This document shows, one piece after another, positions 7,899 through 54,286 of a DNA stretch of 64,000 nt. How positions within the stretch are numbered: the stretch's first letter is position 1; each line of letters starts with the position of its first letter. The DNA comes from Candidatus Levyibacteriota bacterium (GTDB lineage: Bacteria; Patescibacteriota; Microgenomatia; Levybacterales; UBA12049), in contig JBDRBE010000004.1 in assembly GCA_043823085.1 (NCBI GenBank), positions 342,780-406,779 on the forward strand, read 5' to 3'. The notes beneath the pieces were generated by a model that ran no database searches, was not told where the DNA came from, and saw only the letters and a list, made by a program, of their open reading frames with translations. A program made the translations under genes and the position numbers.

Positions 7899-7973
7899 AG
7901 AAACATCCTATCACAGGCAATTTTTCTTGACAAGAGGATTTTTTTGAATTATCATATGGTTTATTAAAACGAG

Positions 7974-11212: not shown

Positions 11213-11878
11213 ATGTGCTATTATTTAATTATGCCTTATCGAACAACTCCACTTGTTAATAACGGTCTTTATCATATATATAACCGTGGCGTGGAAAAAA
11301 GACAAATCTTTATGAAAGACCGAGATTATCAAAGATTTCTCCAAACTCTCTACTATTATCAGTTTAGCGGTCCTAAAGCTCGTTTTTCTACGCATAAGAA
11401 ATTCAAAAATAAAAATTTTGATAAAAATCCTAAAATCGTGGAAATTATCTGTTACTGTTTAATGCCAAACCATTTTCATTTATTACTGAAACAATTAAAG
11501 GATAATGGCATTCAGGAATTTTTGAGTAAAGTAGCAAATAGTTATGCAAAATATTTCAATACTAAGTACAAACGAGTTGGTCCACTTTTACAAGGTCAAT
11601 TCAAAGCGGTAACTGTAGAAACCGATGAACAATTAGTCCATTTATCAAGATACATACACCTAAATCCATTCACAGCTGAAATTACAAAAGATTGGGAGAA
11701 CTTTCCCTACTCTTCCATTCAAGAGTTTATTGAGGATACAACTTCCAAAATTTGCGCCATTGAACAAATTTTAAATTTATTTACAAATCAAGCAGGATAT
11801 AGATCGTTTATTTCCGATAACCAATCATACGCTTTGGAACTTAGTAAAATCCAACATCTTTTAATAGACGAAGAATAA
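11213..11878 (+). mobile_element. REP-associated tyrosine transposase (RAYT; IS200/IS605 TnpA-like Y1 HUH transposase)
   Basis: HUH motif in CYCLMPNHFHLLL. Conserved YHIYNRG, SYAKYFN, RVGPLLQGQFKA and the catalytic Tyr region RYIHLNP. Flanked on both sides by REP hairpins. Confidence 0.75.
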
Positions 11879-11902: not shown

Positions 11903-11926
11903 GTTGACAAGGAAAACTTTTGTGGT

Positions 11927-12400
11927 ATGATACCTAGCATGCCATTTGCTCCTGTAGAAATAGCAACCATAAACCTTGCTAACGAGCTCCGTGAAGGAGA
12001 TAAATTGCGTGATGCAAAAAAAATAAGAGATGAACATGATAGCGCATGGAAGACTCTTGGCGGAAAATTTGGAATCGCTGTTACCGACGAACAAATGGTT
12101 AATGTATTAAAAGCAACGCTCAACATGTTGCGATTTGGTTTAGAACGAGGACTTGGTAGCCCTCCTTCCGAAAAAACTATCGAAGAATTAGAAAAGGCGC
12201 AGGATCTTAGTACCACAAAAGGAAGACAAGCTGCAAATGCGTTTTTTGAACGATTAGCAGGAATTTATGCATATAAAAAATATCCTCCTCTTGACCCAAT
12301 TGAGAACGAAAGAAAATGCATAGCATGTGAAATCGCAGCAATTTCTTTACGCAAACCTAGAGAATTTGACAAACCGCCTGTTTTAAAGTATACTCCTTAA
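11927..12400 (+). CDS. hypothetical protein
   Basis: The ORF track begins inside the REP/promoter. The likely start is MIPSMPF at 11927, after the duplicated promoter. Confidence 0.4.
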   Translation: MIPSMPFAPVEIATINLANELREGDKLRDAKKIRDEHDSAWKTLGGKFGIAVTDEQMVNVLKATLNMLRFGLERGLGSPPSEKTIEELEKAQDLSTTKGRQAANAFFERLAGIYAYKKYPPLDPIENERKCIACEIAAISLRKPREFDKPPVLKYTP

Positions 12401-28932: not shown

Positions 28933-29169
28933 TTTATAATTTTATCACAAATTATAAATATAAAAAAACTATCCCATAATATTGCTTTTTCTACTTTTTC
29001 GTGGGATAAAAGCGCAAAGGAATACCTTTCTCTCTACAATAAACTTATTGAACCTACGCCTTAAATCTCTTTGATATAGCAGATAAAATATCCCAAAAAC
29101 AACTTTTTCTACAAACAAAAAACTAATTAATTTAAGAAAGCTATTCGGTTCCAAAATCTTCCCCCCTTT

Positions 29170-31979: not shown

Positions 31980-32088
31980 ACTATACGCTATCCCCTATTT
32001 CCCTATACGCCACAGTCAAACGTGGCTGTCGCGTTTGACGCGACGCTATTTTTTGCATATTTTTACAATTGTGCTAAAATCAAGGCGT

Positions 32089-35439: not shown

Positions 35440-36009
35440 TTATCCCGCTCCAATTGGAACTTCTACTCTTTGCTTTTTTTGCTTAACCAGTTCCGGCACA
35501 CCTTTGGCTTTTTTCTCTTTTTCTTCTTGCAATTCTTCCATTTTTTCCCTTTCCACTTTTTCGGCCGGCTTTTCTTCCGCCTGTCTTTGCGGGGTCGTTA
35601 ATTTATGATAATATTCACCATGCAATCTTTGTTTTAATGCTTCCTCTTTTTGCTTATCTTCAATCTCTTTTTGGGCGATTTGTTCTTTTGGTATTTCGGG
35701 TTTTTCCCCGCCGTATAAATGCTTGACTACGTCTTTTGTTTCCTGCGTTTGCTCAATTGGTTTTTGCGGAAGTTCGGATTTTCCTGGCGCGCTTTTTGGA
35801 CTGATCCCAACTGCCGTTTGAACAGCACCGCCGAATCCCTTTTGTCCCTGTTGCTTATTGCTTGCTACTTGTTTCTGTTGCGCTTGTGTTTTTTGTCCGG
35901 CCGCTTGGTATTTTTGTTTTCCTGTAATTTGACTACCAGCAGTTTTTATCGACTCAATCCCCTCTTCTTTTATTGTTTCCAGCGAACCACCGAGAATATT
36001 TTTTATCAT
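35440..36009 (-). CDS. hypothetical Lys/Gln/Glu-rich low-complexity protein
   Basis: 189-aa ORF. No domain recognised. Confidence 0.35.
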   Translation of the reverse strand: MIKNILGGSLETIKEEGIESIKTAGSQITGKQKYQAAGQKTQAQQKQVASNKQQGQKGFGGAVQTAVGISPKSAPGKSELPQKPIEQTQETKDVVKHLYGGEKPEIPKEQIAQKEIEDKQKEEALKQRLHGEYYHKLTTPQRQAEEKPAEKVEREKMEELQEEKEKKAKGVPELVKQKKQRVEVPIGAG

Positions 36010-36030
36010 ACTTTGTTTTATTTAGATTTT

Positions 36031-36190
36031 TGCGAGGAGGCATAAAATTTTCGCCGTTCGCATTTTGAGCTTAACATAAAAAGAACCGATTGAAAAGAGA
36101 CCTAATGAACAAATTAAGTAATTTTTAAAGAATGACTGTTGCGAACTGCGGAACAAGAAAACTTTTGTGCCGACTTCAGCAAAAATCTAG
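36031..36190. mobile_element. MITE-like element, second full copy (GGCATAAAATTTTCGCCGTTCGCATT ... GCGAACTGCGGAACAAGAAAACTTTTGTGCCGAC)
   Basis: Same terminal inverted repeats as 21651-21805. Confidence 0.6.
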
Positions 36191-36495
36191 CCCAGAACCC
36201 CTAACTTCTTTTTTGCACTTTTTGAAATTCTTTCCGGTGTCCACACAGGCTCCCAAACCAAGTCAACTTTAACCTTTTTCACTCCTTTTACTTCTTTTAT
36301 TCCCTCCTCCACCCAATCGCTAAAAGCAGTAGCAAGCGGACAGCCGGGAAAAGTTAGCGTCATTTTGACGTTAACATTGCCCGTTTTTTGCTCAATTTTA
36401 ACGCCGTAAATCAACCCCAAATCAACAATATTGATACCAAGCTCGGGGTCAATAACTTTCTTTAATTGCCTCCGAATTTGTTTCTCATTAATCAT
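36187..36495 (-). CDS. DUF59/MIP18-family Fe-S cluster assembly protein (SufT/PaaD-like)
   Basis: Segments MINEKQIRRQLKKVIDPELGINIVDLGLIY and TFPGCP are typical of the family. Confidence 0.6.
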   Translation of the reverse strand: MINEKQIRRQLKKVIDPELGINIVDLGLIYGVKIEQKTGNVNVKMTLTFPGCPLATAFSDWVEEGIKEVKGVKKVKVDLVWEPVWTPERISKSAKKKLGVLG

Positions 36496-36530
36496 TTGCT
36501 TGTTTATTCTAAATTCTTTTTACAACTCTT

Positions 36531-36558
36531 CACTTAAATGATATATATCATTTAAGTG
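36531..36558. promoter_or_regulatory. 28-bp perfect palindrome CACTTAAATGATATATATCATTTAAGTG immediately 3' of the TrpR-like gene
   Basis: Seen directly in the sequence. A sister palindrome is at 37006-37033. Confidence 0.5.
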
Positions 36559-36559
36559 G

Positions 36560-37003
36560 TCAGAAGGCTTTTCTGTTTTTCCATTTTCTTTCTTCATGCT
36601 TTCTTCGATAATACGACCATGTACTTCCTTTGGACGGAGGAATTTTTGCCAGCATGTCTTCCACCTTTTGCCAAAATTCGCTTATCTTTTCGTCACGAAG
36701 TATTTTTTCAACCGCCTTTTTATAGCCTTTACCTGAATATTTAAGACTAATGCTTACCGAGGCGATTGTTGGAGGAGTAACCCGCAAGATATTTCCTATT
36801 GAAGGATACCTATAACCCTTTTCCAGTAAAACAGCAATTGAGAGACGTTTTGCCAACATTATTTTCTCTACTGGTGAGAGAAATTCTTCTAGAAAATCGT
36901 CGATATCCTGCGAATCCTTAAGACTTGCTATTACACTTTTAAAAATCTCAAACATTCTCTTTTGGACATCTTTATGAATCGGATATTTTGAAACCTGCGC
37001 CAT
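36560..37003 (-). CDS. TrpR-like (YerC/YecD family) DNA-binding protein
   Basis: TrpR-fold HTH region LSPVEKIMLAKRLSIAVLLEKGYRYPSIGNILRVTPPTIASV. Confidence 0.65.
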   Translation of the reverse strand: MAQVSKYPIHKDVQKRMFEIFKSVIASLKDSQDIDDFLEEFLSPVEKIMLAKRLSIAVLLEKGYRYPSIGNILRVTPPTIASVSISLKYSGKGYKKAVEKILRDEKISEFWQKVEDMLAKIPPSKGSTWSYYRRKHEERKWKNRKAF

Positions 37004-37005
37004 AA

Positions 37006-37041
37006 CACTTTAATGATATATATCATTAAAGTGGTTGTCAA
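37006..37041 (-). promoter_or_regulatory. 28-bp perfect palindrome CACTTTAATGATATATATCATTAAAGTG overlapping the promoter TTGACA-N17-TATCAT-N9-ATG of the TrpR-like gene (putative operator)
   Basis: The palindrome spans the promoter spacer and -10 and ends 2 nt before the start codon. Confidence 0.5.
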
Positions 37042-37166
37042 GAATTATTTTTTGATTCAATAACTTCTACCCTACCCTTTTTACTAATCTCTTAATTACC
37101 ATTTGCTGATTACTTATTTACTGATTTTTATTGACAGCATATTGTGCTTGTGCTAATATCACCGAT

Positions 37167-38429
37167 ATGTATAGAGGTGAAAAACTACAAGGTGAAACAT
37201 TAAGAAATCACTGTTTATCAAAGATTCAAAATGCTCTAAGAGAAGTTTGGGCTTTGCCGGAAGGGCAGGCTTTAGACTCTTCGACTATAAATGTTCTCCC
37301 GCTTAACATAAAAGGAGACAACGAAACAACTGAGTTCCTACGAAACCACATTATGAACAAAGTTATTGGTAAAATAATATTTGTCTGCGATCCAAGTCAA
37401 AGAGGTACAGGAAAATCTGTTGAATTGTCAGCGGAAACTCTTCGCTCAGAGGGTCTTTTTAACTATTTAGAAGAAGAACGATTAATTATTGCTACTGACT
37501 TCTTTCAAGGAATAAGAAGAATTATTCTTCCGGGTCTTTGGCGAAATTTAGATGGCGGTTGCTTTAATTCTTCTCGCGATGATGAATTTAGTAGCATCCC
37601 ATTTGGTAACATTGGTAACACAAAAGAACAGATCCTGCTAGATCCTGATTCAGTTTTAATCATTGCGGTAAATTCCGAAAACGAATTATTTTTTAACGCA
37701 GCCGGCATGCCAGATGGTTGGCAGGAAGCATTTCCAAAACCGCAAGAAAACCCAACCGCTGCCGCCGCATCCTCCCCCCCAGACACTGCTGATTCTACCC
37801 CGGCCATACCTGATGTTACAACAGCTCTCAATTATTTAAAAGAGCAGGTAGAACTGTATCTAAATGGAAAACGAGTTGCCGCCGAACAACCTCCAGATTC
37901 TCTTGACCAAATTTTGGCCGGTTTTGAAACTTTTTCCAAATATAAAGGCCCGGTAAAAGAGCTTAGAGACAAAAATGCAAGACTAGGTGTTTTGGCTGGG
38001 CGCGGAACCGAGGTCAGAATAGTCTCAAGCGAAAATTCAACAATAATTACTCTCTATGATTTAATGATAGATGAATTATCTAATCGTGAATGGGCTTGTC
38101 GCTACCAGACTCCTACTTTACAACAAATTAAATATTGTTTTTGCGGCGATAGAGAACATGATAACAGACAAAGATTTGGCAGATTAGTTATCGAAATACA
38201 AACCTTACCGGATGGAACCAAAGTTATTGATCCTAGAATTGAAGAATTTAACAAACATAACACAAAATATGAGGTAATAGAAGCTAGACGACTAGTAGCG
38301 CATCTAAAGACAAATGAATTTCTCGAACCTTTACTCTCTGAGATCAAACCTCATGAAAGAAGTGCTATCGTGGTACCTCGTCCTCGCCCCAGAACTCCTC
38401 GCCGCCCCAGAACTCATTTCTGGGAGTAA
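37167..38429 (+). CDS. hypothetical protein, paralog A of a three-member family
   Basis: Own promoter TTGACA-N17-TAATAT-N7-ATG at 37131-37166. Shares the central motif LL..FxxAAGMPDGWQEAFPK, a P/T/A-rich linker and the C-terminal domain (RLGVLAG..ITLYDL..CF..R.G.LVIEIQT) with the ORFs at 38471 and 39771. Confidence 0.5.
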   Translation: MYRGEKLQGETLRNHCLSKIQNALREVWALPEGQALDSSTINVLPLNIKGDNETTEFLRNHIMNKVIGKIIFVCDPSQRGTGKSVELSAETLRSEGLFNYLEEERLIIATDFFQGIRRIILPGLWRNLDGGCFNSSRDDEFSSIPFGNIGNTKEQILLDPDSVLIIAVNSENELFFNAAGMPDGWQEAFPKPQENPTAAAASSPPDTADSTPAIPDVTTALNYLKEQVELYLNGKRVAAEQPPDSLDQILAGFETFSKYKGPVKELRDKNARLGVLAGRGTEVRIVSSENSTIITLYDLMIDELSNREWACRYQTPTLQQIKYCFCGDREHDNRQRFGRLVIEIQTLPDGTKVIDPRIEEFNKHNTKYEVIEARRLVAHLKTNEFLEPLLSEIKPHERSAIVVPRPRPRTPRRPRTHFWE

Positions 38430-38470
38430 CCTTGACTCCCCTCTCCCGCTTGTGTTAATATCGCCAGCAT

Positions 38471-39457
38471 ATGGCAAACCCAAGAGAGGAAGAAAAACCT
38501 GTTCAACCATCGCTGGTTTATCAAATGAAAGCCACAATTTCAGGCGGTTTGCAAAACCTTGAAATGCTACCAGTGGGAGAAATTGTAGACCCAAAATTCA
38601 TTTACTTTCCCATGCTCATTATAGACGAAGATGCTTCTGAAATTTTAGGAGACAAAAAAATTCCGCTTGTCGTAGTTAAATTTCCAAAAAGCAATTATCA
38701 AGGGGAACTATTTGATTTATCAACCGAACACAATATTTGGGAGGATGAAGAAAGACTTAGGCTATATTGTTATTCAAACTCTAATACTCTAGTCATAGAC
38801 TTACAGCTTCCCAAATTAGTCGACGATGATGGCTACCAGGCCTCTTTTGACAGAGATGACGTTTATGGTGAAAACCCCAATGTTATAATGATTCCGGGGA
38901 CAATCGGAGCACCAGAAGATATTTTACTAGTTGCCTTGGACGGCGAAAGAATAGGCTGCACGACCGTCTTCTTTCCAGAAAACTGGAGAAAAGCTGTAAA
39001 AAATGGAGGACTGGATGAAGAAACGCCAACAGCAGATGATTTCGCTCCGCTAAATTTTTTTGCAGGAATCACGGAAACTCCACCCACGTGTGCAAAAATG
39101 ATTGAACCGACTCGTGAAGAAACTCCTAAACCAAAAAAGTCGGAGACTCTCCGAGATTTTGTGGCAAGACTTCAAGACGGCGAAAGCTTTCCCTTATTTA
39201 ACGTTCCTGGAATAGTTGTCGAAGAAGGGACAAGAGTGGCAGTTTTGGGGAAAAATCCTGGAACTGATATTAGATTCGTAAACAATGATAATTTTGTCAG
39301 GCTTACATTTTACGATTTAAATTTAGAAACAGTTTGGGAATTATCAAAAAAAGATGCCTTAAAACCAGATGATCTTTTATCTTGTTTCGAAAGAAATAAC
39401 CAAAGACAAGGTCAACTGATTATAGAAATAAAAAAAACAGAGGAAGGTATCTCTTGA
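38471..39457 (+). CDS. hypothetical protein, paralog B
   Basis: Promoter TTGACT-N18-TAATAT-N9-ATG at 38432-38470. Motif FFPENWRKAVKNGG. C-terminus RVAVLGK..LTFYDL..CFERNNQRQGQLIIEIKKT. Confidence 0.5.
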   Translation: MANPREEEKPVQPSLVYQMKATISGGLQNLEMLPVGEIVDPKFIYFPMLIIDEDASEILGDKKIPLVVVKFPKSNYQGELFDLSTEHNIWEDEERLRLYCYSNSNTLVIDLQLPKLVDDDGYQASFDRDDVYGENPNVIMIPGTIGAPEDILLVALDGERIGCTTVFFPENWRKAVKNGGLDEETPTADDFAPLNFFAGITETPPTCAKMIEPTREETPKPKKSETLRDFVARLQDGESFPLFNVPGIVVEEGTRVAVLGKNPGTDIRFVNNDNFVRLTFYDLNLETVWELSKKDALKPDDLLSCFERNNQRQGQLIIEIKKTEEGIS

Positions 39458-39770
39458 AAAGATGTTATAAGAGAATTAAATGCGGCAACGATTTGGGAAG
39501 ATACATTTATTCCGGCATTAAATTTAACTGTCTGCACCCGCGAAGGCCTGACTAACCTTTTATCGAAAATGGCACCTCCTTCCCCACCAGATTATTGGGA
39601 ACAACGCGCTTTTGAAAAACAGGTTCAAAAGGATTTGGGAGAAATAAGACGTGAAGAAGAAGCAAGAGAACGGAGACGATTTAGACCTCCTCAAAGAGGA
39701 TACCGCAGACATTGGTAACAAACTAATCCACCTTGACGGCAAAAATAACTTGTGCTAATATCCCTTCCAT

Positions 39771-40955
39771 ATGATTCAACTAGCCGAAAGAGGGCTTGAT
39801 ACTGGGGTTTCCCAAGAACACAATCCTCAACAGATAAGGACAGAGTGCGTCAATCGCATAGAAAGCACCTTAAGGAGAATAGGCTCATTATCAAAAGAAC
39901 ACATAAAACCTTCCGATATTTCTGCGCCTCCCATAACTTACAGCAATTCATTAAAAGCTTTTGCTAATCTTAACTGCCCGGTATTGACAGAAACCGGCTT
40001 GATAATTATGCATCAACCCGCTAAAAAATCAAACAAAGACGGACAATCTGTCTGCTTAACAACAAGGATATTAGCAACGAAAGATTCGCCAACACGCGTA
40101 AGGGTTGATACTCAAGGTTTTCTCACTAAACGATATAATCTTACTCTGCCGCCTTTAGAGGCTAATCTATTGGCGTGGGAATTTCGCGTAAACAAAGCTG
40201 ATGAAAGCGGAGATTTCGAAGGGGATATGGACAATAATGCTCCTTTGGGCAAAAAAGATGGTCGTGAGCAAGTTTTATTAATTGTTATTAAACCTAAAGG
40301 CAAACATCTTCTTACATCTGTTTTAATGCCAAAAAATTGGCGTGAAGCATTCAATAAAAATGGACAGCTCATACCTCTTGAACCAAAAAAAGTAGAAGCC
40401 CCCGCCGTCCCCGCCTCTGCTGCAATTATTCACACAGAAACACCAACACCTACTACTGTATTTTCCGCGACATCGCCTACAGAGAGAGAAAAACCAAAAC
40501 TGATTTCCACTTTTACCCAACTCTTGGCCACGCTTGAACAATGTTCAAGAGAAACCGCTAAAAATAGAAACCGAAGAGCTGTGTTAGAGGGCCCAAATAC
40601 TAATGTATCAACTTCCAAAGATCCAAAAAACCCGGGAATGATTTGTACTTTTCATGGCCTCTCTCGAAATGATGCTTTACAACTCATCCGGAATACATAT
40701 CCAGACATAAATGACCTCATACATTGTTTTTCCAAAACTACGAATGTAAATGACAGCCTGGTTATTAAGTTTACAAAAGATCCAAGAGCAGACAATTTTG
40801 GAGTGACTTTTGCAATTAGGTCCCCGAGAAAGGCAAATAGCATACGAGCCAAAAATTCACGACAGATAGTTGGAAAAATCAGTCTTATCTTAGAAAGACA
40901 AGTTCTCTCTGACTTTCTTTCTCACCTAAAACCACCCAGCGGAGGGAAAAACTAA
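39771..40955 (+). CDS. hypothetical protein, paralog C
   Basis: Promoter TTGACG-N17-TAATAT-N9-ATG at 39733-39770. Motif LMPKNWREAFNKNG. C-terminal homology to A and B. Confidence 0.5.
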   Translation: MIQLAERGLDTGVSQEHNPQQIRTECVNRIESTLRRIGSLSKEHIKPSDISAPPITYSNSLKAFANLNCPVLTETGLIIMHQPAKKSNKDGQSVCLTTRILATKDSPTRVRVDTQGFLTKRYNLTLPPLEANLLAWEFRVNKADESGDFEGDMDNNAPLGKKDGREQVLLIVIKPKGKHLLTSVLMPKNWREAFNKNGQLIPLEPKKVEAPAVPASAAIIHTETPTPTTVFSATSPTEREKPKLISTFTQLLATLEQCSRETAKNRNRRAVLEGPNTNVSTSKDPKNPGMICTFHGLSRNDALQLIRNTYPDINDLIHCFSKTTNVNDSLVIKFTKDPRADNFGVTFAIRSPRKANSIRAKNSRQIVGKISLILERQVLSDFLSHLKPPSGGKN

Positions 40956-40957
40956 TT

Positions 40958-41521
40958 ATGGCAGCACCACAAGAAGCACCAAAAAAAAATTGTATTTCAG
41001 AAGGAATTTCTCCAGCAAGTCTTTTTTTAGCGGAAGTTACAAGTTCATTTGGAGGCCCGATTAATGCAAGGCAAATTTGTAACCCAGAACTAAAATGCAA
41101 TTCTGCTACCGATATAAGACTTTGTCGAACACACGGTGTCGGTCAATTACCTGAAATAATTGTAATCTCTTCCGATTTAAAAGAAATAAATGAATCAGAA
41201 AACAATTCCTTATCTGTTTTTGTTACGTATGTTAATGAGTTTTGTATTGATCTCTCGGGTTGTCTAGCTAAAAGAACTCCCTTAATTAAACTAGATCTTA
41301 TCGTAAGACGCGATGAAGTTTTTTTTCAATTAGCAAGAATTCGCGATACTTCTTGGATAAGAATTTTACCGGAGGGTAGAATCTGTTTTTCAAGCAAGGG
41401 AACGGTTTTAGGAATAAAAGAAGACTCTGGTAAATTTACAATTTCAGCAATTGATATTGATCCTTTATTGATTGAAGAGGTTTTTGACTACGATGGCAAA
41501 CTAGATCTTTCTGAAAATTAA
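40958..41521 (+). CDS. hypothetical Cys-containing protein, probably co-transcribed with paralog C
   Basis: Starts 3 nt after the stop of C. No recognisable domain. Confidence 0.4.
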   Translation: MAAPQEAPKKNCISEGISPASLFLAEVTSSFGGPINARQICNPELKCNSATDIRLCRTHGVGQLPEIIVISSDLKEINESENNSLSVFVTYVNEFCIDLSGCLAKRTPLIKLDLIVRRDEVFFQLARIRDTSWIRILPEGRICFSSKGTVLGIKEDSGKFTISAIDIDPLLIEEVFDYDGKLDLSEN

Positions 41522-42150
41522 TACTCACTCCTTCCTTCCATGGCGCGTTGGAGAGTTAATTCGTCGGCGTATTCAATATCTGAACCGGTGGGCAGTCCCC
41601 TGCCAATTCGTGTTATTGTTAATTGTTGATTGTTGATTGTTGATTGTTGGCGAAGTTGCTTCGCCAAGTACATCGCCGTCGCCTCCCCTTCCATGGTCGG
41701 ATTCGTCGCCAGTATTATCTCGCGGACTAATGCTGAACTCGAACGCGGAACCGCGCCGACTCGCTCTAGCAGTTGGTGAATATAAATTTCATCCGGGCCG
41801 ATATTGTTGAGCGGATCAATCCTCCCATGGAGGACATGATAAACGCCGTTATACCTGCCGTTTTTTTCCAGCGCCAAAACATCCAAGGGCTCTTCAACCA
41901 CACAAATAGTTGAATCATCTCTTTTCTCATCAGAACAAATATTACAGGGGTCTTGCTCCCCTATCATAAAACATTTCGAACATAAGACCGTATCTTTTTT
42001 CAAATTGATAATAGATGAAGAAAATCTATCCAGTTCACCTTGAGGAACATGCAGTAAATAAAATGTTAGCCTCTGCGCTGTTTTTGGCCCAATTCCCGGC
42101 AGTCTTTCAAAGGACTCAATCAAATTCGCAATTGCTTTTGGGACTCTCAT
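41518..42150 (-). CDS. recR: recombination protein RecR, carrying an in-frame heptamer-repeat insertion
   Basis: HhH segment GIGPKTAQRL. C4 zinc finger CSKCFMIGEQDPCNIC. Toprim domain. (ATTGTTG)x5 at 41615-41649 encodes QQSTINNQQLT. Confidence 0.85.
   Translation of the reverse strand: MRVPKAIANLIESFERLPGIGPKTAQRLTFYLLHVPQGELDRFSSSIINLKKDTVLCSKCFMIGEQDPCNICSDEKRDDSTICVVEEPLDVLALEKNGRYNGVYHVLHGRIDPLNNIGPDEIYIHQLLERVGAVPRSSSALVREIILATNPTMEGEATAMYLAKQLRQQSTINNQQLTITRIGRGLPTGSDIEYADELTLQRAMEGRSEY
41615..41649. repeat. ATTGTTG heptamer tandem repeat (x5) inside the recR coding sequence
   Basis: Seen directly in the sequence. The same repeat is inside proS at 49581-49615. Confidence 0.7.
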
Positions 42151-42295
42151 ATTGGAATTCTTGAAGTCAGATTTCCTTGACGTTTTTGATCTTGATTCGT
42201 CAGCTGACGAATTGAAGTCTTGAAGTCTTGATATCTAGAAATCAAATTATCAAGAAATCAAGTTCAAGAAAATCCCACTTCTATCTTCAATGATT
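42151..42295. repeat. palindromic intergenic element (CAGCTG core, TCAAGAAAATCCCACTTCT terminus)
   Basis: Between recR and prs. Confidence 0.6.
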
Positions 42296-43255
42296 CTATT
42301 TTTTTATTTCTTCGGCGATAATATCAGCGACTGTTAGAATTTGCAGTTTGGGAAATCTTTTTTCTCTTGGACAATAAACCGTATCTGTCACAAAAAATTT
42401 CTTCACTGCCGATTTTTGCAAAATTTTTGGCGCACTCTTTGAAAATACTGAATGCGTCACAAAAACATAAACTTCCTTTATCCCCAATTTTCGGAGAAGT
42501 TTTGTCGCGGTAATTATTGTTCCTCCAGATGAAATCATATCATCAACAATAAACGCCCTTTTAATTTGCTTTAAACTGATATTTTCCAAACCCTCAATTT
42601 TATCTGCTGTCACTTGTCCGGTTTCCAAATTTCTGCTTTTGACAATCGCGCCAAAAAACATATCATTTAACATTTGCGAAAGCAATTTTATCCGTCTTAA
42701 TCCTCCCATATCCGGTGAAATCAAAAGGCTCTGCGAATTATTCCATTTATTTTTTTTAATTGTTTTGGCAAAAAGAGAAAGCGCAGAAAGATGAATAATC
42801 GGCATATGAAAAAGCTCGGGAATTTTAATAGAGTGGAGGTCAAAACAGATAAGTTTATCCATCCCCATCGCTTCTAAAGTTTTGATAATAACTTCCAAAG
42901 ACACCGCCTCGCCTGTTCTAAAAAGATGATCCTGCCTTTGATAACCAAGATACGGAATAACAGCGGTAATTGATTTTGCGCCGCTTCTTCTTAGAGCATC
43001 GACAATAAAAAAAAGCTCCATGTAATTTTGGTCAACAGGCGTACAGCAACTTTGCAAAACAACGCATTTTTGGTCTAAAACTTTGTCAATAATTCGAACG
43101 CGTTTTTCGCCGTCCGGGAAGATATATATTTCCAGAGGTGTTGGACTTGTGCTTAATTTACCTGCGAGTTTTTTTCCAAGTGTCTTACTGGAACTACCGC
43201 TTATAATCTTCACAACAGTTATTGTACTATGTGTCGAAAAAAAATCAATAAGCAA
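42296..43255 (-). CDS. prs: ribose-phosphate pyrophosphokinase
   Basis: PRPP synthetase motifs (DLHS, VDDMISSGGTI). Confidence 0.9.
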   Translation of the reverse strand: MLIDFFSTHSTITVVKIISGSSSKTLGKKLAGKLSTSPTPLEIYIFPDGEKRVRIIDKVLDQKCVVLQSCCTPVDQNYMELFFIVDALRRSGAKSITAVIPYLGYQRQDHLFRTGEAVSLEVIIKTLEAMGMDKLICFDLHSIKIPELFHMPIIHLSALSLFAKTIKKNKWNNSQSLLISPDMGGLRRIKLLSQMLNDMFFGAIVKSRNLETGQVTADKIEGLENISLKQIKRAFIVDDMISSGGTIITATKLLRKLGIKEVYVFVTHSVFSKSAPKILQKSAVKKFFVTDTVYCPREKRFPKLQILTVADIIAEEIKK

Positions 43256-53606: not shown

Positions 53607-53666
53607 AATAGAAATTCTTACATTTATAAATAAGAGAGTCAAGTCCTAAATTATTTAAACAAATAA

Positions 53667-53703
53667 ACAAAATACTACAGTGCTATGTAGTGCTAAAGTT
53701 TAG
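53667..53703. promoter_or_regulatory. 37-bp repeat ACAAAATACTACAGTGCTATGTAGTGCTAAAGTTTAG, 3' copy, overlapping the stop of the TrpR-like gene
   Basis: 34 of 37 identical to the copy at 54250-54286. Contains CTACA..TGTAG and TAGCGCTA-like dyads. Confidence 0.5.
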
Positions 53704-54238
53704 AACGCAAAAGTTTTTCAATACGCCTATGGAGCTCGTTTTTTTCGTCCAGCTTCTTTAACACATTGCTTATTTTGTCTTTCTGTTTTTGACTCGCACT
53801 TTCTATTACTTTTTCCAAAAGAAGCTCCGGCCAAAAATACAAAGCATGTCTTCTTTTAAATTTATCCCAATCTGAAATATCTGCCCAACTTTTTCCCTTC
53901 TCTATTTCTTGTTTAGGAAGTTTTTTTATTATATTCCTAAAACCATCTCCTCTTTCTGAAAGCCAAACAGCTATCTTCGCAATAGTGGCATAACTTACAT
54001 GCAATTGCCGATTCACTTTTTGATAAGTCAATCCTTTTATCAAAAGTTTTGCTATTCTTAATCTTTTAGATAAAATTTGAACTTCTTTCTTTGTCAATAA
54101 ATCTTGAAGAAATAAAGCAGCCTCGCCGATATTTCCTGTATAAACTAATGCATTAAGTAAATCAAAAAATAAGTCTCTCTGTTCATTTTTTGAAAGCTTT
54201 TCAATTCTTCTTGGTTTTTCAAAAAATGTTTTATTCAT
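53693..54238 (-). CDS. TrpR-like (YerC/YecD family) DNA-binding protein, second paralog
   Basis: HTH region TYQKVNRQLHVSYATIAKIAVWL. Family similarity to the 36560 protein. Confidence 0.6.
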   Translation of the reverse strand: MNKTFFEKPRRIEKLSKNEQRDLFFDLLNALVYTGNIGEAALFLQDLLTKKEVQILSKRLRIAKLLIKGLTYQKVNRQLHVSYATIAKIAVWLSERGDGFRNIIKKLPKQEIEKGKSWADISDWDKFKRRHALYFWPELLLEKVIESASQKQKDKISNVLKKLDEKNELHRRIEKLLRSKL

Positions 54239-54249
54239 AAAATGAACTA

Positions 54250-54286
54250 ACAAAATACTACAGTGCTATGTAGCGCTAAAGTATAG
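54250..54286. promoter_or_regulatory. 37-bp repeat, 5' copy, just upstream of the TrpR-like start (putative operator with a TATACT -10)
   Basis: In gene orientation, TATACT is followed directly by the TAGCGCTA palindrome and the CTACA-N6-TGTAG dyad. Confidence 0.5.

Follow-up and report, generated by a model that had tools for sequence, protein, structure and literature searches.

Does a small regulator gene flanked by palindromes control the row of related genes that diverges from it, or are the regulator and these genes separate neighbors? This question was raised by a stretch of 64,000 nt, referred to here as the window, from contig JBDRBE010000004.1 of a Candidatus Levyibacteriota bacterium. 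A preliminary description of the window, made from the sequence letters, had proposed that a TrpR/YerC-like gene (designated R) bracketed by two 28-bp palindromes forms a regulator-plus-paralog-family module with three divergent paralogous genes (A, B, and C, followed by a small open reading frame [ORF], D) that are transcribed from a private type of promoter. To our knowledge, transcription control is almost entirely unexplored in the Candidate Phyla Radiation (CPR, Patescibacteria), whose members cannot be grown alone. We compared the window with related genomes, metagenomes, protein families, and known regulatory systems. Our comparisons point to a probable answer in two parts: R would have its own palindromic operator, and it would lie beside a separate, orphan A-to-D cluster that uses ordinary promoters.

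R encodes a TrpR-family protein of the CPR

The R gene (36560..37003, minus strand) encodes a predicted helix-turn-helix regulator of 147 amino acids that is HisR/YerC-like. It matched the Pfam family Trp_repressor (PF01371) over profile positions 5 to 86 of 88 with an E value of 1.6e-9 and a score of 38.1 bits, above the cutoff of 27, which bears out its initial assignment as a TrpR/YerC-like gene. Its score against the NCBIfam model for YerC/YecD (TIGR02531) was 27.9 bits, under the cutoff of 42.2, and its match to the TrpR model (TIGR01321) was weak, with an E value of 0.13. The closest solved structure was 3G1C (E value of 7e-7), and R residues 17 to 109 could be aligned with 3G1C, 3KOR, and 3FRW. 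The recognition helix, PPTIAxVS, was kept across R orthologues and corresponds to STATISRVN in HisR. Beyond this shared region, R carries a 17-amino-acid N-terminal extension and a roughly 45-amino-acid C-terminal extension with a basic tail. We detected 333 homologues of R. The best 120 of the 333 were 65 to 79% identical to it, and all those among the 120 that had a source name were from Levybacteria, Microgenomates, or Patescibacteria. These comparisons indicate that R belongs to the TrpR family, closest to HisR/YerC, and that it is a member of this family specific to the Levybacteria/Microgenomates (CPR).

Two 28-bp palindromes bracket R and its orthologues

Both of the perfect 28-bp palindromes reported to bracket R were present. 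The upstream copy, CACTTTAATGATATATATCATTAAAGTG (37006..37033), ends 2 nt before the R start codon (37001-37003), as had been described. The downstream copy, CACTTAAATGATATATATCATTTAAGTG (36531..36558), lies 1 nt past the R stop codon (36560-36562), not the 3 nt first reported, and is separated by 35 nt from the ATG of the next gene, which encodes a DUF59/FeS_assembly_P protein. These were the only two matches to the palindrome in the 64 kb when up to three mismatches were allowed, with 0 expected, and the consensus of the element is CACTT(T/A)AATGATATATATCATT(A/T)AAGTG. The R promoter (37013..37041, minus strand) consists of TTGACA-17-TATCAT, with 11/12 matches, followed by 9 nt to the ATG, and the upstream palindrome overlies both its spacer and its -10 element.

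The idea that the palindromes are functionally tied to R was strengthened by its orthologues. Each of 17 distinct R orthologues with 32 to 78% identity had a copy of the palindrome at -1 to 12 nt from its start codon, and 15 of the 17 had a second copy 0 to 53 nt past the stop codon. This second copy was kept at these loci although it stands outside the selection imposed by the search pattern. In three of the four species compared, including that of the window, a TTGACA -35 element was found at a fixed distance of 2 nt (AC) from the palindrome, and in these three species TATCAT was found within the palindrome, 17 nt from TTGACA. Among the orthologues that had diverged most, AATGAT-N4-ATCATT, the inner core, was better kept than the HisR-like outer arms. 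The centers of the two palindromes are 473 to 527 bp apart in the orthologues, a distance set by the length of the gene, and we therefore draw no conclusion from it about helical phasing. The palindromes were absent from our terminator scan: they have an AT-rich stem of -13 kcal/mol followed by the tail AAGAGUUGUAAAAAG, and an intrinsic terminator was ruled out because they have neither a G+C-rich stem nor a U-tract. No Rfam match was obtained in positions 35500-42500.

The R palindrome resembles, and differs from, known operators

YerC has been identified as HisR, a histidine-dependent repressor of the TrpR family, and 3G1C has been named as the Eubacterium eligens HisR (PMC9413887). In Firmicutes, Actinobacteria, and Synergistetes, HisR sites have the consensus cacTTTAnnnnnnTAAAgtg, and they precede hisR in about half of the genomes (PMC9413887). 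R is like HisR in its Pfam family, its best structure match, and the pattern of its recognition helix; the outer arms of its palindrome, CACTTTA/TAAAGTG, are identical to the HisR half-sites; and its palindrome stands, as the HisR operator does, before its own gene. The differences are also clear. HisR is shorter than 110 amino acids and lacks the two extensions found in R, and R scores under the cutoff of the YerC/YecD model. The HisR operator is 20 bp long (cacTTTA-N6-TAAAgtg), whereas that of R would be 28 bp, with its arms N14 apart and a strongly kept inner core, and R has in addition the palindrome copy past its stop codon. Whereas the HisR regulon consists of histidine biosynthesis and uptake, the putative targets of R include only one hisF, and many of its sites are intragenic. 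We regard R as a protein that would act like HisR or TrpR, and we do not assign it to the orthologous group of HisR.

E. coli TrpR shares the helix-turn-helix fold family with R, occludes promoters, and regulates itself, but R is only weakly similar to it in sequence, and the trp operator (TGTACTnGTnnACnAGTACA) differs from the R palindrome. The half-sites of TrpR are separated by an eight-base-pair spacer, and tandem binding is not described (PMC9413887). The difference between the N14 spacing of the R arms and the N6 spacing of the HisR arms is 8 bp, equal to the TrpR spacer, which raises the possibility of two dimers per 28-bp site. Roadblock-type operators, such as the cre sites of CcpA, are short palindromes that occur both at promoters and inside the coding regions of unrelated genes. 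The R element, at 28 bp, far exceeds these in length; it is also nearly invariant and occurs in few copies, and its predicted binding protein comes from another family.

A second paralogue of the TrpR family is encoded in the window (53693-54253, minus strand). It is 186 amino acids long, matched the Pfam family with an E value of 2.5e-15, and is 30% identical to R. This gene is flanked by two direct copies of a 28-nt motif of its own, GC(G/A)CTACATAGCACTGTAGTATTTTGTT (53666-54276), which contains the inverted repeat CTACA-N6-TGTAG; one copy precedes the regulator gene and the other is at its stop codon, before the next co-directional gene. The arrangement supports the view that the same promoter/operator cassette precedes a regulator and its downstream neighbor.

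Palindrome sites elsewhere lie at promoters and within genes

Two scans were made for the palindrome in other genomes, the first with the exact 28-mer in one genome per GTDB species and the second with a 24-nt core in Joint Genome Institute (JGI) metagenomes. The 28-mer was found in four other CPR metagenome-assembled genomes (MAGs) and the core at 53 further loci. From the two scans together, 28 of 67 exact-core sites were within 100 nt of an R homologue. The preliminary description had considered that the palindrome might prove to be a generic terminator occurring broadly and unrelated to TrpR-like genes. It does recur in related genomes, yet not as a terminator, and it is still strongly linked to TrpR-like genes. 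Many sites lie exactly over a -10 element, 1 to 8 nt before a start codon. Outside R loci, promoter sites were found 4 to 26 nt before the ATG of genes for OMP decarboxylase (pyrF), a PMT-like protein, HisF, GatB, and a YbaK-NUDIX protein.

About 18 to 22 of the 67 sites are inside long ORFs, where they are read in frame as (H/N)(L/F)NDIYHLS; in these copies the variable W at nucleotide 23 is T, and a stop codon is thereby avoided. The genes that host them encode amine oxidase, PGA_cap (CapA), GT4 glycosyltransferase, MetRS, and TatD proteins, mostly with a Pfam domain extending across the site (loci L012, L013, L014, L016, L021-L024, L039, L043, L045, L049, L054, L056, and L064). Compared with three solved homologues, TatD has a net insertion of 7 residues that corresponds to the peptide encoded by the site; in MetRS, the peptide aligned in register with no insertion. 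Five GT4 orthologues were 55 to 83% identical in the flanks of the site and 89 to 100% identical within it, and this divergence around a near-identical site suggests selection at the DNA level, in a set of loci that were found through the pattern itself. Some of the intragenic hosts are membrane proteins without a Pfam match, and envelope and glycosylation genes seem to be over-represented among the hosts.

Other explanations of the palindrome were also considered. The parS, matS, Noc, and SlmA sites are short palindromes that are few per genome, often intragenic, and conserved at the DNA level. The R palindrome could likewise be a chromosome-level cis element, bound by R or by another protein, that acts in nucleoid organization or segregation. 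The many in-frame sites inside conserved genes, kept across species, fit such a role, as do the heterogeneous functions of the targets and the C-terminal extension with a basic tail that R has and HisR and TrpR lack. Against it, many sites stand exactly over -10 elements immediately before start codons, which fits transcription control. In addition, an 858-kb contig has its four exact sites dispersed, at about 69, 276, 591, and 717 kb, and parS-like clustering was rejected on this ground. We consider a chromosome-level role unlikely.

Occurrence in frame in unrelated genes and the net insertion in TatD would also be expected of a mobile repeat that tolerates in-frame insertion, such as a repetitive extragenic palindrome, a miniature inverted-repeat transposable element, or a Rickettsia-palindromic-element-like sequence, in which case the link to R would be incidental. 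The copies are few, however (4 exact ones on 858 kb and 2 in the window), their orthologous positions are kept across diverged species, the MetRS peptide is in register, a length of 28 bp is not divisible by 3, and the link to R held in all 17 of the distinct orthologues examined. A mobile repeat is the least probable of the explanations that we considered.

The 28 bp can also be divided as 11-6-11, CACTTTAATGA-TATATA-TCATTAAAGTG, which is dif/Xer-like in its geometry only. If the palindromes were recombination sites of this type, the R gene would be a cassette, and the in-frame GT4 sites would serve to shuffle gene segments. The 28-bp length with an AT-only 6-bp center, the flanking of a discrete gene, and the matching structural position of the site in several GT4 genes agree with this, but much else does not. 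The orientation of R and its neighbors (RecR, DUF59, and CysS) are fixed, with no inverted or excised variant in eight loci that retain a neighbor, and the upstream site is in a fixed register with the -35 element, the -10 element, and the ATG. The site-bearing GT4 genes come from different organisms, as orthologues, and do not represent paralogues of a single genome; there are several dispersed sites per genome and not one per replicon, and the window shows no adjacent recombinase gene. The bracket around the second TrpR-family paralogue, made of non-palindromic direct repeats, is better accounted for by duplication of a promoter/operator. Recombination sites are thus a highly improbable explanation.

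Our own reading of the intragenic copies is that they are roadblock-type or otherwise regulatory binding sites, which is the least secure part of our account. Taken with the promoter sites, they suggest that the related genomes have a dispersed regulon in which some sites would occlude promoters and others would act as roadblocks. Within the searchable library, we found no paper describing the 28-bp element or the R clade in the CPR, which is not proof of novelty.

The A-to-D genes are probably not a conserved partner of R

The ORF positions confirmed that R and the A-to-C genes are divergent and about 130 bp apart. In this part of the window, the genes stand in the order CysS(-), a low-complexity 189-amino-acid gene(-), DUF59/FeS_assembly_P(-), R(-), A B C D(+), and RecR(-). 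Five other genomes had RecR-R-DUF59-(CysS) synteny, and in these the gap between RecR and R was 0.4 to 1.1 kb and was occupied by other small genes, versus 4.5 kb in the window. No relative of A, B, or C was found in the RecR-R slot of these five genomes. In addition, no operator-like site was detected between 37034 and 41521, a region that includes the A, B, and C promoters, when up to three mismatches were allowed. We also found no TrpR-like gene on the seven contigs carrying members of the A/B/C family, contigs that are short. The syntenic gaps and the lack of an operator in this region argue that the A-to-D genes are cargo in a variable slot and not a conserved partner of R.

The preliminary description had placed R in control of A to D as one functional module. 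Divergent placement at such a short distance speaks for this, as does a family member on another contig, P0009 (L066), that adjoins CysS and is near the low-complexity 189-amino-acid gene in a window-like neighborhood. Against the module stand the absence of A to D from the five syntenic R loci, the absence of the palindrome from their promoters, and the lack of a TrpR-like gene near their homologues. R homologues, moreover, are common (333), versus 13 members of the A/B/C family. We consider a module of this kind very unlikely, and on the present comparisons A to D is a lineage-restricted orphan gene cluster in a variable recR-R slot.

The A, B, and C promoters follow an ordinary, probably leaderless layout

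Each of the three promoters that had been described for A, B, and C was present on the plus strand: TTGACA-17-TG-n-TAATAT for A (37131..37159), 7 nt before its ATG; TTGACT-18-TG-n-TAATAT for B (38432..38461), 9 nt before its ATG; and TTGACG-17-TG-n-TAATAT for C (39733..39761), also 9 nt before its ATG. Their core, CTTGTGCTAATATC, had 4 matches in the window at up to two mismatches, versus 0.36 expected. The shorter pattern TGTGNTANNAT occurred 8 times in the window versus 1.5 expected, and all eight matches were 6 to 9 nt before an ATG opening a long ORF. Five of the eight belong to genes unrelated to A, B, and C, and a private promoter type is therefore not supported. The five extended -10 elements (TGTGnTAnnAT) outside A, B, and C, each 6 to 9 nt before an ATG, are at 7905-7915(-), 11214-11224(+), 11921-11931(+), 28939-28949(-), and 32070-32080(+). 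The arrangement TTGTGnTAAaAT-N7-9-ATG recurs at family members from other contigs.

The A, B, C, and R genes and at least five other genes of the window have a -10 element 6 to 9 nt before the ATG and no Shine-Dalgarno site, and internal operon genes such as D have Shine-Dalgarno sites instead. This spacing implies leaderless or near-leaderless mRNAs, as had been proposed, and leaderless units appear to be the norm for transcription in this genome. The A, B, and C promoters fit strong canonical sigma-70 extended -10 promoters in the ordinary, probably leaderless layout of the genome; they match known leaderless systems with sigma-70 extended -10 elements (TRTGnTAnAAT), and nothing in them is specific to this locus. 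Several of the longest-ORF starts called with translation table 11 (e.g., 11213, 11879, and 31951) are probably too far upstream.

A proposed mechanism and its weak points

We propose that the palindrome is an autoregulatory operator of R. This assignment draws on the proximity of sites to R homologues, the bracketing of R orthologues, the fixed register with the -35 element, the match to HisR half-sites, the HisR structure 3G1C as best structural match, the conserved recognition helix, the comparable arrangement at the second paralogue, and the lack of terminator features or an Rfam match. R would bind the upstream palindrome over the promoter spacer and -10 element, RNA polymerase would be blocked, and the R gene would be repressed. 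The R transcript would start with the ATG or immediately beside it. The downstream palindrome would be a second operator governing transcription into the DUF59 gene, through either promoter control or a roadblock, and the two copies may cooperate. The DUF59 gene (36187..36495, minus strand; assigned by its Pfam match) is downstream of R and co-directional with it, an adjacency also present in L007, L008, L010, and L040, and is a probable second target of the operator pair. The A-to-D cluster would be separate from R; within that cluster, D would be translated from the C transcript by means of its Shine-Dalgarno site.

Several points weigh against this account of R and its neighbors. The arm spacing differs from that of HisR sites, and the inner core outlasts the outer arms in divergent orthologues, and so the match to HisR half-sites could be partly coincidental. 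All sites outside the window were retrieved with an exact pattern, which makes the conservation of the core partly a matter of ascertainment. The putative targets, which besides hisF are pyrF, gatB, ybaK-NUDIX, PMT-like, and DUF59 genes and the intragenic GT4, amine oxidase, CapA, MetRS, and TatD genes, share no metabolic theme. A simple repressor would not ordinarily have about a quarter to a third of its sites in frame within genes, as is seen here. The placement of P0009 beside CysS means that the A-to-D neighborhood may have some positional memory, and it is possible that R acts at the A promoter from about 100 bp away, for example, via looping. In a broader alternative, the palindrome and R would make up a previously undescribed cis/trans system spanning the genomes of Levybacteria and related Microgenomates. 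The near-invariant element would be set over leaderless promoters and also written in frame into conserved housekeeping and cell-envelope genes, where it would serve as a roadblock or a chromosome-level signal, and beside it would lie a new two-domain protein family with a basic C-terminal tail and without recognizable relatives in other lineages. We view this alternative as possible but doubtful and retain autoregulation of R beside an independent A-to-D cluster as the probable explanation.

A conserved regulator paired with an exactly defined 28-bp site allows likely targets in these organisms to be listed from sequence. The in-frame copies in conserved genes offer cases in which selection at the DNA level overrides freedom at the protein level, and, if they are indeed roadblocks, they would represent a compact form of gene regulation in very small genomes. 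The leaderless extended -10 layout should be useful for annotating start codons in MAGs of this group, and A, B, and C add a well-delimited orphan family.

The A, B, and C proteins form a small orphan family

The A gene (37167..38429, plus strand) encodes a 420-amino-acid, two-domain protein with an Arg/Pro-rich basic C terminus, and it is identical to the product of NCBI locus tag ABH816_04140. The C gene (39771..40955, plus strand) encodes a 394-amino-acid paralogue whose closest relative elsewhere, P0004, is 37% identical. D (40958..41521, plus strand; 187 amino acids) starts 2 nt after C and is preceded by the Shine-Dalgarno sequence GGAGGG and not by a promoter, and it is therefore probably co-transcribed with C. 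Pairwise BLASTP comparisons of A, B, and C gave E values of 3e-10, 3e-7, and 1e-9 with 23 to 26% identity, which indicates that they are true but distant paralogues, that is, old tandem duplicates. These comparisons and the lack of any profile or fold match upheld their description as paralogues without a recognizable domain. The G+C content and the third-position G+C content (GC3) of A to D resemble those of the rest of the window, and recent horizontal acquisition of these genes was rejected for that reason.

The B gene (38471..39718, plus strand) is interrupted by an in-frame TGA at 39455-39457. The part up to the TGA (38471-39457) encodes 328 amino acids, and the 86 open codons that follow, to 39718, align with A, C, and the basic tail of the family; the end of B, DYWEQ...RRHW, resembles KKKYWEQK of P0005. 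The same TGA is present in L001, an independent Logan assembly of SRR27458547 that also contains this stretch of the window. The TGA may have arisen by recent nonsense mutation, may be read through, or may mark a split gene. An alternative genetic code was rejected since TGA ends five other long ORFs and the long housekeeping ORFs of the window (G+C content, 37.7%) are intact under table 11.

When 1.84 billion representative proteins were searched exhaustively with a profile, a family of 13 members emerged, 10 in addition to A, B, and C. The N-terminal domain ends in LPxxWRxAxxNGRL, is duplicated in three members, and stands alone in one 215-amino-acid protein; it is followed by a Pro/Thr/Ala-rich linker, a C-terminal domain (..ASCF..LVLEV..), and a disordered stretch. 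A basic tail (KKKYWxxK...) is found in most members. The sequence motifs first described for A, B, and C are present in these three, but only P-x-x-W is invariant across the wider family, whose alignment has no conserved stretch of 7 to 10 columns. Profile searches of A to D against Pfam, NCBIfam, PHROGs, and PADLOC produced no match, and neither Foldseek against viral structures nor IMG/VR scans with C and D produced any; for D, no search was made of the large protein databases. A word-indexed homologue search with A returned only A itself, and one with the 13-member alignment returned two members, probably because lysine-rich tails swamped the index. The AlphaFold2 model of A had a predicted local distance difference test score of 64 and no fold match. 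The model of the homologue P0007 showed two alpha+beta domains, with the basic tail folded as a helix; the two family domains were modeled with good confidence and matched no known fold. Our guess is that A, B, and C bind nucleic acid or another polyanion. Family members are paired in tandem elsewhere as well (L004, 3345-3992 and 4254-6308; L067, 120-1238 and 1315-2955), with the 215-amino-acid protein made up of the N-terminal domain among them, and a 546-amino-acid neighbor in L067 appears family-like at its N terminus when examined by eye.

Other features of the neighborhood

D and the RecR gene are convergent, and their stop codons overlap within TTAA at 41518-41521, leaving no intergenic DNA. 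Short, K/R-rich basic C-terminal tails containing Y or W (e.g., YYRRKHEERKWKNRKAF and KKKYWEQKAQRSK) were seen on unrelated proteins of the lineage; bearers of such tails include R (residues about 125-147), P0005-P0013, and the product of window positions 35440-36009. These tails may be a clade-wide feature. Two of the MAGs that contain the palindrome, CAZDTO01 and CAYZZG01 (L005, L007, L008, and L011), are titled "uncultured Gammaproteobacteria bacterium" and carry Levybacteria-type R, DUF59, RecR, and CysS proteins that are 65 to 77% identical to those of the window. The Gammaproteobacteria label of these two MAGs is probably wrong.

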